Virus record (IMG/VR): IMGVR_UViG_3300012275_000005
Source of the DNA: a virus
Lineage: Duplodnaviria; Heunggongvirae; Uroviricota; Caudoviricetes
Direction: 5' to 3' (one strand)
Length of the DNA: 16,164 bases
Both the position numbers and the translations under genes were made by a program. The notes beneath the pieces were generated by a model that was not told where the DNA came from, did not search any database, and worked only from the letters and a program-made list of their open reading frames with translations. Every line of letters begins with the position of its first letter. Positions within the stretch are counted from its first letter, which is position 1. Shown here one piece after another: positions 963 to 11,904 of the stretch.

Positions 963-1478
963 ATGAACGCAAAAATCAGATACGGCCTGTCGGCTGCCGT
1001 TCTGGCACTGATTGCCGTCGGTGCGCCCGCGCCTGATATTCTCGACCAGTTTCTGGATGAAAAAGAAGGTAACCACACAACGGCATACCGGACCATCTGT
1101 CGGGGTGCCACGATGGTGGATGGAAAACCCGTTTTTCCCGGTATGAAACTGTCGAAGGAAAAATGCGACCAGGTCAACGCCATTGAGCGTGATAAGGCGC
1201 TGGCATGGGTGGAGCGCAATATTAAAGTACCACTGACCGAACCACAAAAAGCGGGTATCGCGTCATTTTGTCCCTATAACATTGGCCCCGGTAAGTGTTT
1301 TCCGTCGACGTTTTATAAGCGGCTGAATGCCGGTGATCGTAAGGGCGCATGCGAGGCGATTCGCTGGTGGATAAAAGATGGTGGGCGCGATTGCCGCATA
1401 CGTTCAAATAACTGCTATGGACAGGTTATTCGTCGTGACCAGGAAAGCGCATTAGCCTGTTGGGGGATAGATCAGTGA
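963..1478 (+). CDS. endolysin, phage lysozyme (T4-lysozyme/GH24-like) with N-terminal SAR-like hydrophobic segment
   Basis: 171 aa. N-terminal Ala/Gly/Leu-rich stretch [18 protein letters not shown] resembles a signal-anchor-release domain. The C-terminal half is colinear with phage 21 R-type endolysin (…[13 protein letters not shown]…ALACWG). It is followed by Rz/Rz1. Confidence 0.85.
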
Positions 1479-2097: not shown

Positions 2098-2583
2098 TTA
2101 TTTTGTGGTTTTGAAAAGTTTCATGTACTGATTGATAGGTTTTCCTGAGTAAGAATCTGTCCCTGGCTCAGGATTATCAGATAAAACTTTTGCAGCTAAT
2201 TTGTTGGAGGCTTGATTACCAACCCCGACAATAGCCTCTACATAGAATTCATTGAAGGAATTTCTAAATCCGTATTGCATTTCTTCAATGCTGGCGATGA
2301 GAAGTTGAGTACCGATGCCTTGCGCTTTATATTCATCAGCTACTGCATAGCCAACGCCAAAGCATGGTTTACCTTCAACAAACTCTGCAGGGACATATAT
2401 AGCAACACCTTTAACATTTTCTCCTTCAAAGAATGCATAAGTAAACCGTGGTGTACCCTCTGCATCATCCAAAAGCACCTTCATATTTGGGTGAACTATG
2501 CATGGTGAAGGCTTAATCAGACCATTAGAAAAGGCGTATTGAAAACTAATTAATGAGTCTGTTGGATCAACGAGTTCTGGCAT
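2098..2583 (-). CDS. GNAT-family N-acetyltransferase (moron, AT-rich, antisense to the late operon)
   Basis: 161 aa; GNAT motif-A-like segment AVADEYKAQGIGTQLLIASIEEM; own RBS AGGA about 7 nt before the ATG; sequence visibly more AT-rich than all flanking phage genes; only minus-strand gene in the window. Confidence 0.75.
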   Translation of the reverse strand: MPELVDPTDSLISFQYAFSNGLIKPSPCIVHPNMKVLLDDAEGTPRFTYAFFEGENVKGVAIYVPAEFVEGKPCFGVGYAVADEYKAQGIGTQLLIASIEEMQYGFRNSFNEFYVEAIVGVGNQASNKLAAKVLSDNPEPGTDSYSGKPINQYMKLFKTTK

Positions 2584-3534: not shown

Positions 3535-4017
3535 ATGTCAGGACCTCCGAAAACCCCGCCACGCCTGCATTTGATTCGAGGCAACCCCTCAAAGCGCCCC
3601 GTTAAAGACCACAAAAAAACCGCTAAAAAGGATGAAAAAGGTCTTCCTAAAATTCCGCAGCATTTAGGGGCTCAGGGGAAGTACTGGTTCAGGCGAATGG
3701 CGGAAGAGCTGAATGCGGAAGGGATCATTTCTCAGCTTGATGCGCGTGCGCTCGAGTTGCTGGTGGAAGCCTACACCGAATATCGGCATCACTGCGAAAC
3801 ACTCGATGTTGAGGGGTATACCTACCGCACGGAAACGCAGAGCGGTGATGTACTGATTAAGGCGCACCCCGCGGCGGCAATGAAAGCGGATGCCTGGAAG
3901 CGGATCCGGGCAATGCTTGCAGAGTTTGGTATGTCACCGGCAAGCCGGGCTAAAGTAAATATCGCCGGACCGGATGATGTTGATCCGCTGGCGGAGCTTT
4001 TAAAAGCGAGAGACTGA
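3535..4017 (+). CDS. terminase small subunit (P27 family)
   Basis: 160 aa; basic N-terminus, central …LDARALELLVEAYTEY… and C-terminal …AEFGMSPASRAKV…, characteristic of P27-family TerS; stop overlaps the TerL start (ATGA). Confidence 0.85.
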   Translation: MSGPPKTPPRLHLIRGNPSKRPVKDHKKTAKKDEKGLPKIPQHLGAQGKYWFRRMAEELNAEGIISQLDARALELLVEAYTEYRHHCETLDVEGYTYRTETQSGDVLIKAHPAAAMKADAWKRIRAMLAEFGMSPASRAKVNIAGPDDVDPLAELLKARD

Positions 4018-5774
4018 TGGCAAAAGTGGCTGACGGGATCCGCTACGCCGAACGTGTTGTTGCAGGAGAAATTGTTGCTGGCGAATTTGTCCGCCTGGCC
4101 TGCCAGCGTTTTCTTGATGATCTGAAGTACGGCGAAGAGCGGGGGATTTATTTCAGTGAACCCCGTGCGCAGCACATCCTGAATTTCTACAAATTTGTGC
4201 CTCATGTAAAAGGGGCGCTGGCAGGCCAGCCCATTGAGTTGATGGACTGGCATGTATTTATCCTCATTAATATTTTTGGTTTTGTCATTCCGCTGGTCAA
4301 TGAAGAGACCGGGGAAGTTGTCATGCGCAGCGATGGCAGCGGACGTCCGGTGATGGTGCGCCGGTTCCGGACGGCGTACAACGAAGTCGCCCGTAAAAAC
4401 GCAAAATCAACTCTGTCATCGGGTATCGGCCTGTATATGACGGGGGCAGATGGTGAAGGCGGAGCTGAGGTGTATTCAGCCGCAACCACGCGTGACCAGG
4501 CCAGAATCGTGTTTGAAGACGCCAAAAATATGGTCAGAAAAGCCCGGTCGACACTCGGGCGGTTGTTTGATTTCAACAAGCTGGCGATTTACCAGGAGCA
4601 GAGCGCATCAAAATTTGAACCGCTTTCTTCGGATGCAAACAACCTAGATGGTCTGAACATCCACTGCGCCATTATTGATGAGCTGCATGCACATAAAACC
4701 CGTGACGTGTGGGACGTTCTGGAAACGGCAACCGGTGCCCGTCTGCAGTCCCTTTTATTTGGTATCACCACGGCAGGGTTTAACAAGGAAGGGATTTGTT
4801 ACGAGCAGCGTGATTACGCCATCAAGGTATTGCGTGGCTATAACAGCGACGTGGAGGGCGCGGTAAAAGACGACTCCTACTTTGCGATTATTTACACCCT
4901 CGATGAGGGAGATGATCCGTTTGATGAAACGGTCTGGCAGAAAGCGAATCCCGGCCTGGGCATCTGTAAACGCTGGGATGATCTGCGTCGCCTGGCGAAA
5001 AAAGCGAAAGAACAGGTCTCTGCGCGGGTGAATTTTTTTACCAAACACATGAATGTGTGGGTAACAGCAGAGTCTGCCTGGATGGACATGATTAAGTGGG
5101 AGAAGTGCGAATACATTGCCCCACGACATGAGCTGAAAACGTATCCCATGTGGGTCGGCGTTGACCTTGCTCATAAGATTGATATCTGTGCGGCGGCAAA
5201 ACTCTGGCGAACGGATAACGGGCATGTTCATGCCGATTTTAAATTCTGGCTTCCGGAAGGACGGCTGGAACGATGCTCGCGGCAGCAGGCAGAACTTTAC
5301 CGGAAGTGGGCGGAGATGGATAAGCTGATTCTGACGGATGGTGATGTTATCGATCATGCTCAGATAAAAAGTGACTTACTGGAATGGATTGGTGGTGAAA
5401 ACCTCAGGGAACTGGGATTTGACCCGTGGAGCGCGATGCAGTTCAGCCTGGCACTGGCTGAAGAAGGGATACCGCTGGTGGAGGTTCCGCAGACGGTTCG
5501 CAATCTGTCAGAGGCCATGAAGGAAACGGAATCACTGGTCTATGCCGGGCGTTTCCATCACAGCAATCATCCGGTCATGAACTGGATGATGTCTAACGTT
5601 ACGGTAAAACCGGACAAAAACGACAATATCTTCCCGAATAAATCCACGCTGGAAGCCAAAATCGACGGCCCTGTTGCGATGTTTACAGCAATGAGCCGGA
5701 TGCTGGTCAATGGTGGTGAACCGGAGCTGGATCTGTCTGAACATCTGGTCAGCGTGGGCATCCGCTCGCTTTAA
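4017..5774 (+). CDS. terminase large subunit
   Basis: 585-aa uninterrupted ORF directly after TerS and before the portal; length and position typical of HK97-type TerL. Confidence 0.9.
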
Positions 5775-5785
5775 CCGAGGTCATT

Positions 5786-5968
5786 ATGTTTCTGATAATT
5801 CTCGCGCCACTGGTGGGCGTGCTGGGTGCGCTTTTGCTGGCGTATGGTGCCTGGCTGATTTATCCCCCGGCGGGGTTTGTTGTTGCCGGGGCGTTGTGTC
5901 TGTTCTGGTCGTGGCTGGTGGCGCGATATCTCGACCGTACACAGCCGTCTTTCGGCGGAGGTAAATAG
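5786..5968 (+). CDS. hypothetical small membrane protein (2 predicted TM helices)
   Basis: 60 aa, [26 protein letters not shown]…[20 protein letters not shown] then charged tail; RBS GAGGT upstream; fills the terL-portal gap exactly, with its stop overlapping the portal GTG. Could still be a chance ORF in GC-rich DNA. Confidence 0.35.
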
Positions 5969-7092
5969 TGTTCTTTTCGGGATTATTTCAACGAAAAAGT
6001 GACGCACCGGTGACCACGCCAGCAGAGCTGGCGGATGCCATCGGGTTGTCTTACGACACCTATACCGGAAAGCAGATCAGCAGTCAGCGGGCCATGCGAC
6101 TGACGGCGGTTTTTTCCTGCGTCAGAGTGCTGGCAGAGTCGGTCGGGATGTTGCCCTGCAATCTGTATCACCTGAACGGCAGCCTGAAACAGAGAGCCAC
6201 CGGCGAACGTCTGCATAAGCTGATCTCCACGCATCCCAATGGCTATATGACGCCGCAGGAGTTCTGGGAGCTGGTGGTCACCTGTCTGTGCCTGAGGGGA
6301 AACTTTTACGCCTACAAAGTGAAAGCATTTGGCGAAGTGGCTGAACTGCTGCCCGTCGATCCCGGTTGTGTGGTACCGAAGCTTAACAGTAGCTGGGAGC
6401 CGGTCTATCAGGTCACATTCCCGGACGGCTCCACGGATGTGCTGAGCCAGGAGGATATCTGGCATGTGCGCACGCTGACGCTGGACGGACTGGTGGGGCT
6501 GAATCCCGTCGCCTATGCCCGCGAGGCAATATCGCTGGCGGCAGCGACTGAAGAGCACGGGGCCAGACTGTTCAGCAATGGTGCGGTGACGTCCGGTGTG
6601 TTGCGTACAGAACAGACGCTGTCGGATCAGGCTTATGAGCGCCTGAAGAAAGATTTTGAGGAGCGTCACACCGGGCTTGGCAATGCTCACCGCCCGATGA
6701 TCCTTGAGATGGGGCTGGACTGGAAGTCGATGGCGCTGAACGCCGAGGACAGCCAGTTCCTGGAAACCCGCAAGTTTCAGCTTGAAGAAATCTGTCGTCT
6801 GTTCCGGGTACCGTTGCACATGGTGCAGAACACCGATCGCGCCACCTTCAACAATATCGAAGAACTGGGGCTCGGATTTATCAACTATTCACTGGTGCCG
6901 TATCTGACCCGCATCGAACAGCGGATCAACACCGGACTGGTACGAAAAAGTAAGCAGGGCGTTTATTACGCCAAATTTAACGCCGGGGCGTTACTGCGCG
7001 GGGATATGAAGTCCCGTTTTGAAGCCTACGCCACCGGGATTACAACTGGGGAATTTACTCTCCCAATGACTGCCGCGACCTGGAAGATATGA
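5968..7092 (+). CDS. portal protein (HK97 family); 3' end apparently frameshifted, with a portal-like C-terminus continuing in another frame to 7211
   Basis: 374-aa ORF with GGAGG RBS and GTG start. The frame ends …EAYATGITTGEFTLPMTAATWKI-stop, but the next frame reads …NWGIYSPNDCRDLEDMNPRPGGDVYLTPMNMTTKPSDGSKAGKQKDNANADETTS-stop (7041..7211), which looks like the genuine hydrophilic portal C-terminus. Confidence 0.85.
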   Translation: MFFSGLFQRKSDAPVTTPAELADAIGLSYDTYTGKQISSQRAMRLTAVFSCVRVLAESVGMLPCNLYHLNGSLKQRATGERLHKLISTHPNGYMTPQEFWELVVTCLCLRGNFYAYKVKAFGEVAELLPVDPGCVVPKLNSSWEPVYQVTFPDGSTDVLSQEDIWHVRTLTLDGLVGLNPVAYAREAISLAAATEEHGARLFSNGAVTSGVLRTEQTLSDQAYERLKKDFEERHTGLGNAHRPMILEMGLDWKSMALNAEDSQFLETRKFQLEEICRLFRVPLHMVQNTDRATFNNIEELGLGFINYSLVPYLTRIEQRINTGLVRKSKQGVYYAKFNAGALLRGDMKSRFEAYATGITTGEFTLPMTAATWKI

Positions 7093-7188
7093 ATCCGCGT
7101 CCCGGTGGGGATGTCTATCTCACACCGATGAACATGACCACGAAACCCTCCGATGGCAGTAAAGCCGGTAAGCAGAAGGATAACGCCA

Positions 7189-7839
7189 ATGCAGACGAAA
7201 CAACGTCTTGATGTACCGCTGAGTCTGAAATCTGTCAGTGACTCCGGTGAGTTTGAAGGGTATGGCTCCGTCTTTGGTGTAAAGGACAGCCACGATGATG
7301 TGGTGATGTCCGGGGCATTTGCTGCTTCCCTGCGGGCGTGGAGTGACAGAAAAGCGTTACCTGCGCTGCTCTGGCAGCACCGCATGGATGAACCCATCGG
7401 TGTTTACACCGAAATGAAGGAAGACGATGTCGGGCTTTACGTCAGGGGGCGGTTGCTCATTGATGATGATCCCCTGGCAAAACGCGCACATGCACACATG
7501 AAGGCCGGTTCGTTAACCGGCCTTTCTATTGGGTACTTCCTGAAGGACTGGGAATACGACCGGACGAAAGAAGCCTTTCTGCTGAAAGAAATCGACCTCT
7601 GGGAAGTCAGTCTGGTGACGTTCCCGTCTAACGACGAGGCACGGATCAGCGACGTCAAGAACGCGCTGGCCCGCGGGGAAATCCCCGAACAGAAAAAAAT
7701 CGAAAGAGTCCTGCGTGATGTCGGACTCTCCCGTACCCAGGCCAAAGCATTCATGGCCGGGGGCTATAGCGCACTGTCCCTGCGCGACGCTGAGGATGTG
7801 AGCTCTGCACTGAATGCACTGAAAAATCTGAACTTCTAA
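7189..7839 (+). CDS. prohead protease (HK97 family)
   Basis: MQTKQRLDV…FEGYGSVFGVKDSHDDVVMSGAFAASL… motif typical of HK97-type prohead proteases; RBS AAGGA 6 nt upstream of ATG 7189. The track ORF starts at 7153 in the same frame; I prefer 7189. Confidence 0.8.
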   Translation: MQTKQRLDVPLSLKSVSDSGEFEGYGSVFGVKDSHDDVVMSGAFAASLRAWSDRKALPALLWQHRMDEPIGVYTEMKEDDVGLYVRGRLLIDDDPLAKRAHAHMKAGSLTGLSIGYFLKDWEYDRTKEAFLLKEIDLWEVSLVTFPSNDEARISDVKNALARGEIPEQKKIERVLRDVGLSRTQAKAFMAGGYSALSLRDAEDVSSALNALKNLNF

Positions 7840-7853
7840 TCAGGAGAAATACG

Positions 7854-9059
7854 ATGGCGGTAGATATTAAAGATGTCGAACAGGTCGCGCAGGAGCTGCA
7901 GCAGAAGTTTGACGACTTCAAAGCAAAGAACGACAAGCGCGTGGATGCGATTGAGCAGGAAAAAGGCAAACTTGCCGGGCAGGTGGAAACCCTGAACGGA
8001 AAACTCAGCGAGCTGGAAAATCTCAAAAGCGACCTTGAAAAAGAGCTGCTTGAGCTGAAACGTCCGGCAGGTGGTGCGCAGAATAAACTGGCCACCGAGC
8101 ATAAAGAAGCGTTTGTGGGCTTCCTGCGTAAAGGCCGTGAAGATGGTCTGCGCGATCTGGAGCGCAAGGCATTACAGGTGGGCACCGATGAAGACGGTGG
8201 CTATGCCGTGCCGGAAGCGCTGGATCGCAACATTCTGACCTTGCTGAAAGATGAAGTGGTGATGCGCCAGGAAGCCACGGTGATCACCGTTGGCGGTTCC
8301 GACTACAAAAAACTTGTGAATCTGGGCGGCACGGCTTCCGGATGGGTTGGCGAGACTGACGCGCGCTCCCAGACTGCCACCTCAAAACTGGGCCTGATTG
8401 AACCTTTCATGGGGGAAATCTACGGTAACCCGCAGGCCACCCAGAAAATGCTGGATGATGCCTTTTTCAACGTGGAGGCCTGGATCAACAGCGAGCTGGC
8501 AACCGAATTTGCCGAACAGGAAGAAATTGCCTTTACCACCGGCGATGGTACCAAGAAGCCGAAAGGGTTCCTGGCGTATGAGTCCACGGATGAAACAGAC
8601 AAGGTCCGGGCGTTCGGCAAACTTCAGCATATTGTATCCGGCGAAGCGACGGCGGTGACCGCAGATGCCATTATCAAACTGATTTACACGCTGCGTAAGG
8701 CACACCGCACTGGCGCGAAGTTCATGATGAACAACAACAGTCTGTTTGCCATCCGTCTGCTGAAAGACAGTGAGGGTAACTATCTGTGGCGTCCGGGGCT
8801 GGAGCTGGGGCAGCCGTCCTCTCTGGCGGGTTACGGTATCGCTGAAAACGAACAGATGCCGGATATCGCCGCTGATGCGAAAGCCATTGCATTTGGTAAC
8901 TTCAAACGGGGTTACACCATCGTTGACCGTATCGGTACCCGCATTCTGCGTGACCCGTACACCAATAAACCGTTTGTCGGTTTTTATACCACCAAGCGCA
9001 CCGGCGGGATGCTGGTCGATTCGCAGGCCATCAAACTGCTGAAGATTGCAGCGGCGTAA
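7854..9059 (+). CDS. major capsid protein (HK97 fold) with N-terminal delta/scaffold domain
   Basis: 401 aa; the first ~100 aa are a charged coiled-coil-like segment (…QELQQKFDDFKAKNDKRVDAIEQEKGKLAGQVETLNGKLSELENLKSDLEKELLELK…) as in HK97 gp5 delta domain; strong RBS AGGAG; follows the protease. Confidence 0.9.
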   Translation: MAVDIKDVEQVAQELQQKFDDFKAKNDKRVDAIEQEKGKLAGQVETLNGKLSELENLKSDLEKELLELKRPAGGAQNKLATEHKEAFVGFLRKGREDGLRDLERKALQVGTDEDGGYAVPEALDRNILTLLKDEVVMRQEATVITVGGSDYKKLVNLGGTASGWVGETDARSQTATSKLGLIEPFMGEIYGNPQATQKMLDDAFFNVEAWINSELATEFAEQEEIAFTTGDGTKKPKGFLAYESTDETDKVRAFGKLQHIVSGEATAVTADAIIKLIYTLRKAHRTGAKFMMNNNSLFAIRLLKDSEGNYLWRPGLELGQPSSLAGYGIAENEQMPDIAADAKAIAFGNFKRGYTIVDRIGTRILRDPYTNKPFVGFYTTKRTGGMLVDSQAIKLLKIAAA

Positions 9060-9066
9060 TCACTCA

Positions 9067-9086
9067 GGGGCGCGGAACCGCGCCCC
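9067..9086 (+). terminator. GC-rich hairpin (GGGGCGCG-GAAC-CGCGCCCC) immediately after the capsid gene; weak U-tract
   Basis: Perfect 8-9 bp GC stem located 8 nt after the MCP stop; followed by TGTT only, so at best a partial terminator or an mRNA 3'-stabilising hairpin. Confidence 0.4.
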
Positions 9087-9107
9087 TGTTCTGACGGGTG
9101 AAGAATC

Positions 9108-9621: not shown

Positions 9622-9967
9622 ATGCAGGCAGGAAGATTACGTGATCGTGTGGTTATTCTGAATGCCACCACCGTTCGGTCTCCGTCAGGGCACCCTGTGG
9701 AAACAATGACGGAGGGGGCAACCATATGGGCAGAAGTTAAGGGGNNNNNNNNNNAGTGGCAGGGAGAGAATATCCGGAGGCGCAGAAACTGCTCAGGCTA
9801 CAGTGAGGGTCTGGATGAGATTCCGGCGAGATGTAACAGCAACTTCATGTCTGAAAGTGCTGACTGGTGCATTCAAAGGCGCGATTCTGAGTATAGACGG
9901 TCCGCCGATACCGGATGCTCGTGCCACACGGCTTGAGATACTCTGTTCTCAGAAGGGGAATGTGTGA
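9622..9967 (+). CDS. head closure / head-tail joining protein (HK97 gp7-like), interrupted by an N gap and probably a frameshift
   Basis: N-terminus MQAGRLRDRVVILNATTVRSP…IWAEVKG in one frame. After the gap, …VAGREYPEAQKLLRLQ-stop (9756..9806) and …QATVRVWMRFRRDVTATSCLKVLTGAFKGAILSIDGPPIPDARATRLEILCSQKGNV-stop (ending 9967) lie in two different frames. The track translation after the gap (WQGENIRRRRNCSGY…) looks non-protein-like. Confidence 0.6.
9745..9754. other. assembly gap (10 N) inside the head-closure gene
   Basis: Run of N; true length unknown, so the reading frame across it is undefined. Confidence 0.99.
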
Positions 9968-10813: not shown

Positions 10814-11518
10814 ATGTCCTCTAATTTTGAGCGTTCGCAACTGACGAAAATTATGATTTCGTCTGCACCGGTAACAGCAGAAACCCTGGATTCTGCCAGC
10901 TATCTTGGCCTGAGCTGTACAATCAAAGAGGTGCAGTTTACCGCAGGACAAAAGCAGGATATTGATGTCACCACGCTGTGTTCTGTTGAGCAGGAAAATA
11001 TTAACGGCCTTGGTGCCGCGTCAGAGATTTCCATGTCAGGCAACTTTTACCTCAATGCTGCCCAGAACGCGTTGCGCAGTGCCTATGACAATGACACCAC
11101 GTATGGCTTTAAAGTTATTTTTCCGTCAGGCAACGGATTTACCTTTATGGCAGAGGTGCGTCAGCATACCTGGTCTGCAGGAACTAATGGTGTTGTGGCT
11201 GCAACGTTTTCCCTGCGCCTGAAAGGTAAACCTGTGCTGACGACAGAGCCGCTGAAAGTGAAGGTCGATTTAAACAGCACGCTGCAGGTTTCTGCCGGAG
11301 CGAAACTCGAAATGGTGGTTGAGGCTGCCGGTGGTGTGCCGCCTTATTCTTATGTCTGGAAGAAAGGTAGTTCTCCTGTTTCCGGACAGACGGCGGCAAC
11401 ATTCAGTAAGGCATCAGCAGCATCAGGTGATGCCGGTGCGTATACCTGCGAGATTTCTGATTCAGCAAGCCCTGTTAACAAGGTGACCTCCACTTCCTGC
11501 ACTGTTACCGTCAGTTAA
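10814..11518 (+). CDS. major tail (tube) protein with C-terminal Ig-like domain
   Basis: ATG 10814 preceded by AGGAGA; the track ORF starts earlier at 10763 and would overlap the terminator. C-terminal ~95 aa (…GGVPPYSYVWKKGSSPVSGQTAATFSKASAASGDAGAYTCEISD…) has the Y-x-W…DAGxYTC signature of Ig-like domains. Gene order matches lambda V. Confidence 0.75.
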   Translation: MSSNFERSQLTKIMISSAPVTAETLDSASYLGLSCTIKEVQFTAGQKQDIDVTTLCSVEQENINGLGAASEISMSGNFYLNAAQNALRSAYDNDTTYGFKVIFPSGNGFTFMAEVRQHTWSAGTNGVVAATFSLRLKGKPVLTTEPLKVKVDLNSTLQVSAGAKLEMVVEAAGGVPPYSYVWKKGSSPVSGQTAATFSKASAASGDAGAYTCEISDSASPVNKVTSTSCTVTVS

Positions 11519-11532
11519 TGAGGATAGATGTG

Positions 11533-11904
11533 ATGACTAAAAATATCCGCAATCTGGCACTGGCAACGATGTCGGGGTTTCGCCATAAAACTGTTGATGT
11601 GCCTGAATGGGAAGGGGCAACGGTTGTATTACGGGAACCTTCTGCAGAAGCCTGGTTGCGCTGGCAGGAGATCGTTAAAGCAAAAGATGATGAGACACCG
11701 TTATCCGTTGCGGAGCGCGCCCGCCGAAATCTGGAGGCAGATGTTGAACTGTTCATTGATGTTCTGTGTGATACCGGACTGCAACCTGTATTTTCAGAGG
11801 ATGATCGTGAACAGGTGATTGCCGTGTATGGCCCGGTGCATGCGCGGCTTCTTCGGCAGTCTCTGGAACTGATCAGTGATGCCGGCGAGGTTAAAAAAAA
11901 GTAG
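11533..11904 (+). CDS. tail assembly chaperone (lambda G-like)
   Basis: ATG 11533 with GAGGA 8 nt upstream (alternative ATG 11518); acidic 123-aa protein ending …EVKKK-stop on an A8 run; immediately upstream of the tape measure region. Confidence 0.7.
   Translation: MTKNIRNLALATMSGFRHKTVDVPEWEGATVVLREPSAEAWLRWQEIVKAKDDETPLSVAERARRNLEADVELFIDVLCDTGLQPVFSEDDREQVIAVYGPVHARLLRQSLELISDAGEVKKK
11895..11901 (+). promoter_or_regulatory. -1 programmed ribosomal frameshift slippery heptamer A-AAA-AAG (G/GT type)
   Basis: In the G frame the codons are AAA(11896) AAG(11899) TAG(11902). The -1 frame has a stop at 11892..11894 just before the site and is then open from 11895 through 12206, reading KK-VELPGMRFLMMLAL…. 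Confidence 0.7.

Follow-up and report, generated by a model that had tools for sequence, protein, structure and literature searches.

Two extra bases split the portal gene of a lambdoid prophage of E. coli type in a gapped draft sequence

The stretch of DNA analysed here, called the window throughout, is 16,164 nucleotides long (IMG/VR virus record IMGVR_UViG_3300012275_000005) and covers the late region of a lambdoid prophage of E. coli type. It carries, in this order, lysis genes, a GNAT gene on the minus strand, genes for an HNH endonuclease, a P27-family small terminase and the large terminase (4017..5774, plus strand), a 60-aa ymfR-like gene (5786..5968, plus strand), the portal gene, the genes for an S78 prohead protease (Peptidase_S78; 7189..7839, plus strand) and the major capsid protein (7854..9059, plus strand), connector and tail genes, and the gene for the tape measure protein. 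The portal gene sits in the head module of terminase, portal, S78 protease and capsid. The large terminase, 60-aa, protease and capsid genes of this region are intact, as are all other structural genes except for the portal gene itself and a head-closure gene that is broken by a sequence gap. The terminase and capsid proteins are widespread sequences, and for the capsid this holds for the exact sequence. Two starts can be assigned to the protease: the ATG at 7189 corresponds to the RefSeq style of annotation, and a longer form from the ATG at 7153 is the equivalent of the annotation in SfIV and ST64B. Counted from the 7153 start, codon 129 of the protease has a private T at 7537, where all of at least 25 relatives have G, and the predicted exchange is Val to Phe.

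Further features of the window surround this module. The GNAT-family acetyltransferase gene (2098-2583, minus strand) lies between the lysis genes and the HNH and terminase genes; it is present in AR_0089, L027 and L029-L031, absent in 606R7 and L026, and looks like a moron-type insertion. The capsid gene is followed by a GC-rich hairpin at 9064-9085 (GGGGCGCGGAACCGCGCCCC), whose stem has either 4+4 or 5+5 G/C in different loci, with a variable loop and with changes in both arms. It probably serves as an intrinsic terminator, and the variation would be compensatory. Among the tail genes, the sequence GTT AAA AAA AAG TAG at 11890-11904 places a canonical -1 slippery site just before the stop of the tail assembly chaperone gene (11518..11904), and the tail-T ORF, which extends to 12206, is in the -1 frame relative to the chaperone. 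Going by its sequence, A AAA AAG at 11895-11901 is a true recoding site, in an arrangement which we take to match the programmed frameshift of lambda G/GT.

The ORF that begins the portal gene runs from 5968 to 7092 on the plus strand. It has a GTG start preceded by a GGAGG ribosome-binding site, comprises 374 codons, and ends in ...RFEAYATGITTGEFTLPMTAATWKI at a premature TGA (7090-7092). The neighbouring frame, one base behind, has a TGA at 7020-7022, is open from 7023, encodes ...NWGIYSPNDCRDLEDMNPRPGGDVYLTPMNMTTKPSDGSKAGKQKDNANADETTS and terminates at the TGA at 7209-7211. Comparison with related portals divides the gene into a native part (5968..7040, residues 1-358, up to the Ile codon completed at 7041), a site with extra bases (7041..7044), an out-of-frame tail of 16 aa (TTGEFTLPMTAATWKI; 7042..7092, including the premature TGA) and a displaced 3' part in the shifted frame (7045..7211), which corresponds to native N359-S413 and includes the conserved NWGIYSPNDCRDLEDMNPRPGGD motif and the stop at 7209-7211. 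The product as written consists of 358 native and 16 out-of-frame residues, and 55 native residues are lost. Translation of the window as it stands would thus stop at 7092 and yield a 374-aa protein in which the final 55 portal residues, and with them the conserved C-terminal motif, are missing. When the two bases are removed, the gene has 1242 nt and encodes a portal of 413 aa. An earlier note on this DNA, made from its letters and ORFs, had already described a portal frame that ends early at 7092 and an adjacent frame, open over 7023..7211, that carries the portal C-terminus; both the ORFs and the alignment with relatives agree with this. Its estimate of about 414 aa for the repaired portal was about right, the exact length being 413 aa, and the overlap of 23 nt that it proposed between the repaired portal end and the protease start at 7189 matches the RefSeq annotation of relatives.

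The native part of the gene is recognised by the Pfam model Phage_portal (PF04860; E=1.6e-101) and is homologous to solved HK97-type portals (8cez/8fql, E=1.2e-51, residues 27-385; 9lbn, E=1.1e-49). The 374-aa product covers model positions 2-312 and scores 340.1 bits, and the repaired product covers positions 2-321 of 321 and scores 360.3 bits; both are above the gathering cut-off of 39.1. The whole Phage_portal domain is therefore found in a single ORF only after the two bases have been removed, and not in the sequence as written. The shifted frame aligns with the C-terminus of every related portal compared and, in the HK97 portal 8cez, up to residue 403 of 424. The lost segment can be aligned to HK97 gp3 (8cez/8fql) and to the 9lbn portal by way of the motif G..S/T.N..R..E/D.M/L.P.PGGD. 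Since the second frame matches all these portals and completes the Pfam model, it represents the portal C-terminus by more than chance. Judged from these alignments, the frame break is true and lies in an otherwise ordinary HK97-family portal gene. Pfam, 8cez and the alignment of relatives likewise agree with the earlier proposal of an HK97-family portal broken near its 3' end, with a switch at about 7042; the portal alignment and the comparison with related prophages that had been suggested as checks place the switch at 7041-7044 and show one continuous ORF in all relatives. Relative to these intact orthologues the gene has a broken frame, one of the features of a frameshift pseudogene.

Across the site the window reads GGGATTACAACTGG, that is GGGAT[TA]CAACTGG, and relatives read either GGGATCAACTGG or GGGATTAACTGG. 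In a multiple alignment that includes SfIV, ST64B, phiP27 and E. coli 2014C-3338, the window has two extra bases at 7041-7044, and a comparison of the whole window with the nearest complete genome, AR_0089 (99.2% identity), places the indel at 7041-7042. Moreover, a 701-nt query across the site pairs with exactly 699 nt in each of the 19 phage records and in every E. coli record listed. Alignment leaves the identity of the extra pair ambiguous: it can be TA at 7041-42, AC at 7042-43 or CA at 7043-44. The site coincides with a common synonymous C/T polymorphism, at which most loci have ATC and six (L002, L036, L037, L043, L044 and L046) have ATT. The TAC of the window can be read as the T allele, an A and the C allele, a two-allele reading that was noticed post hoc. 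A tandem duplication or simple slippage was considered and rejected, as doubling of adjacent dinucleotides in GGGATCAAC or GGGATTAAC does not yield GGGATTACAAC. The cause suggested in the earlier note, loss of one A near ACAAC, is not what we find. Every relative is 2 nt shorter here, not 1 nt longer, and the same 701 query bases face 699 in every listed match. A 1-nt loss and a 2-nt insertion shift the frame equally, which explains why the former was proposed.

The insertion is private to this sequence. A 70-nt probe across the site was matched to 1,211 places in 1,056 complete E. coli genomes, none of which carries the insertion; the best identity, 97.1%, corresponds to a 2-nt gap. The 19 phage records do not have it either, and exact matches to a 31-mer across the site are absent from 185,579 species-representative genomes and from viral contigs. 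An 18-mer gave 19 matches in metagenome contigs, all due to chance and none with further similarity to the portal gene, three of them sharing about 20 nt with the window. The 374-aa product has no exact record in a protein look-up or in a collection of 5.8 billion clusters. When the last 55 residues, out-of-frame tail included, were used for a protein search, no carrier turned up, which is a weak negative given that only three candidates were collected. The same search returned a Logan fragment (P0001, ending ...ATGINWEFTLPMTAATWKI) that reflects a different event, the loss of one G in a TGGGGAA run 8 nt downstream of the site in the window and within the same 20-nt stretch. Two frame breaks of other kinds were seen in the portal and protease genes of relatives, an extra T in the portal of L029 (CM142812.1) at the equivalent of 6757 and a missing A in the protease of L041 (CP164999.1) at the equivalent of 7693. 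Frame breaks in the portal/protease module are not rare in databases. Exact protein look-ups also returned no record for the tape measure protein of the window, with either of two starts, or for its endolysin.

The source of the window is a gapped draft with runs of N, a point that the earlier note had missed and that bears directly on whether the lesion is real. There are three, of 196 N (279-474), 41 N (1951-1991) and 10 N (9745-9754), and the corresponding stretches of relatives measure 230, 64 and 3 nt, respectively; since the runs differ from these in length, they look like scaffold gaps of estimated size and not like masking. The first of them obscures where the holin gene starts. Three private SNPs cluster at no more than 31 nt from the second gap, which ends at 1991. 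The run of ten N stands in for ATC in GGGGATCAGTGG, so that 7 nt are added and the frame of the head-closure gene (9622 to about 9967) is spuriously broken. A generally noisy window was considered as well and rejected, as the indels in the T runs at 143 and 3490 and in the hairpin region at 9067-9101 are common to other loci. A second private lesion is found in the endolysin gene (963..1478), where an in-frame deletion of 18 nt at 1089/1090 removes the residues DGSGIW; the lysozyme that it encodes is otherwise identical to those of relatives, and the deletion carries no N. It occurs in 0 of 10 loci compared and in none of the top matches listed among 1,795 places in complete E. coli genomes, where an exact copy would rank first. 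The Asp of the lost DGSGIW, in the catalytic Asp region of the endolysin, aligns with D20 of T4 lysozyme. On the sequence, the deletion may be either a second inactivating lesion or another junction artefact.

Four explanations of the frame break were weighed. If the portal were made from both frames by a programmed ribosomal frameshift or by transcriptional slippage, a shift of -1/+2 would be needed within the 70 nt over which the frames overlap (7023-7092), and this overlap and the size of the shift are the only points in favour of such a reading. No X XXY YYZ heptamer occurs in the native frame from 6990 to 7092, where the codons at the switch are GGG ATT ACA ACT GGG GAA, the switch point has no homopolymer run, and any switch outside 7041-7046 would change conserved residues. 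Moreover, the functional relatives SfIV, SfI, SfII, ST64B and phiP27 and about 1,200 prophage copies have one continuous ORF of 413 aa (1242 nt), and the -1 site of the tail genes at 11895-11901 shows in the same window what a genuine signal is expected to look like. For want of a slippery site and given the continuous ORF in relatives, we reject programmed frameshifting in the portal and give it almost no credence. It is very improbable, too, that the 374-aa portal is functional and the short form a tolerated natural variant. Such a protein would keep 312 of the 321 positions of the Pfam portal model. However, its tail is out-of-frame sequence, the segment it lacks holds the motif that even HK97 gp3 and the 9lbn portal share, and no such protein is found in the collection of 5.8 billion clusters. 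Portals that end at the equivalent of 7092, which would have spoken against a break, were searched for as the earlier note had proposed, and no homologue ends there. Taken together, a programmed frameshift and a functional short form claim only a slight share of the probability. The two readings that remain are an error of assembly, which we prefer by a small margin and to which we give about an even chance, and a genuine and very recent 2-bp mutation, which is a serious contender at somewhat under an even chance. An assembly error would mean that two contigs of a fragmented, gapped draft were abutted at 7042/7043, or a gap closed there, with a 2-nt overlap left in. On the left, one contig would stop at ...GGGATTA (T allele), and on the right the other would open with CAACTGG... 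(C allele or an error at the contig end); the mismatch at the polymorphic base would have blocked a clean merge; the real gene would then be intact and encode a portal of 413 aa. A genuine mutation would make the portal a pseudogene and the prophage defective, without a DNA-packaging vertex, by ordinary decay or domestication. The join itself is what we infer; the analysis shows that the insertion is there and is unique, that the source is a draft and that no frameshift signal is present.

For the join error we count that the insertion falls exactly on the C/T polymorphism and juxtaposes both alleles without a tandem duplication, and that a private lesion comes from a gapped draft. The same points, together with the uniqueness of the lesion among more than 1,200 loci, weigh against a genuine mutation, as do the rarity of non-templated 2-bp insertions outside repeats as a class of mutation and the identity of 7045-7211 with relatives, which means that no substitutions have accumulated downstream of the break. 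The three private SNPs beside the gap at 1991 and the intact state of the other structural genes also count for the join error. Little weight is given to a further point. Over 6625-7310 the window agrees with the closest haplotype, that of STEC388 with the T allele, at every position but the two extra bases; at the next variable sites, 7311 and 7392, it has the alleles seen in C-type relatives, and from 7449 it is again like STEC388. A switch of haplotype across the insertion that consists of two SNPs in a freely recombining phage population is suggestive at most, and a third haplotype will always resemble a mosaic of two others where the sites are biallelic. A junction mishandled in the same way as the proposed join could likewise account for the 18 nt missing at 1090 and the 3 nt missing at 9745. 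Against the join error it counts that graph-based short-read assemblers rarely emit sequence that is absent from the reads, and that an insertion of 2 nt outside a homopolymer is atypical of base-calling errors. The module is present in more than one copy in only about 15% of carrier genomes, and there is no sign of a second copy in the source genome, which again speaks against a join error. That all contig breaks lie at copy-variable sites was considered and found unsupported for the 9745 gap, where 208 of 220 records agree. GGGATCA occurs three times in the nearest relative (3996, 7311 and 10018 in L005), and two of these sites coincide with anomalies of the window, the portal insertion at 7041 and the 10-N gap at 9745. 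All 58 GATC sites that remain in the window (58/58) look normal, and this coincidence is weakened by the fact that the closest portal haplotype reads GGGATTA. In favour of a genuine mutation, the sequence as given is unambiguous, private SNPs such as that at 7537 show a lineage that has evolved on its own, and the other indels relative to AR_0089 are natural variants, so that the window is not generally noisy. Independent frameshifts have hit the same module in L029, L041 and P0001, and ST64B of S. Typhimurium SL1344/14028S provides a precedent for a defective prophage in the same phage group. Finally, the endolysin without DGSGIW would be a second private lesion in a lytic-cycle gene. Two loss-of-function lesions in such genes are what early prophage decay looks like, and the second one fits this decay as well as it fits a join error. 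If both lesions were real, the prophage would be at the very start of domestication, with packaging and lysis disabled and the other 20-odd late genes intact, possibly through selection by the host against lytic killing; we see only a slim chance of this. In a more speculative variant of the double-lesion reading, a site-directed process would have done the damage, given that two of the three GGGATCA sites coincide with anomalies.

Should the assembly be at fault, the gene is to be read as an intact portal gene of 413 aa and the prophage may be fully functional. Should the two bases be real, the prophage is packaging-defective, as many cryptic prophages are. Both main readings are well-known phenomena and add nothing new on portals or recoding. 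The importance of the case beyond annotation is little; it is that frame breaks in N-gapped drafts need confirmation at the level of reads before a pseudogene or a frameshift signal is called.

The closest known portals are those of the Shigella phages SfIV, SfI and SfII, Salmonella phage ST64B, phage phiP27 and E. coli prophages (WP_001407096.1, WP_021575729.1 and WP_000466255.1, annotated as 'phage portal protein'). The repaired 413-aa portal differs by one residue from those of STEC388, AR_0089 and 2014C-3338, by two from those of SfIV and ST64B, and by 48 from that of phiP27. The window shares with these relatives the gene order small terminase, large terminase, 60-aa gene, portal, S78 protease and capsid and, once repaired, the 23-nt overlap of portal and protease. 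In contrast, the split portal gene and its two extra bases are found in the window only, and not in SfIV, SfI, SfII, ST64B, phiP27 or the E. coli prophages. HK97 gp3 (8cez/8fql) is homologous but distant, and the product of the window as written has no equivalent of its residues from about 377 to 424, which, going by general portal folds, presumably form the C-terminal crown region. With the small indels that arise at contig joins and closed gaps in scaffolded drafts, the window has in common an N-gapped source, a lesion confined to one assembly, its location at a variable base, and further small losses at 1090 and 9745. The known case most like a genuine mutation is ST64B, which, according to the statement in PMC3853940 that cites Figueroa-Bossi and Bossi (2004), is defective in S. 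Typhimurium SL1344 and 14028S through a frameshift in ORF SB21. On that account, ST64B and the window belong to one phage group, and in each case an otherwise complete prophage has a virion gene with a single frameshift. As described there, however, the ST64B lesion lies in SB21, is present in several strains and was shown experimentally, whereas that of the window lies in the portal gene of one draft sequence.
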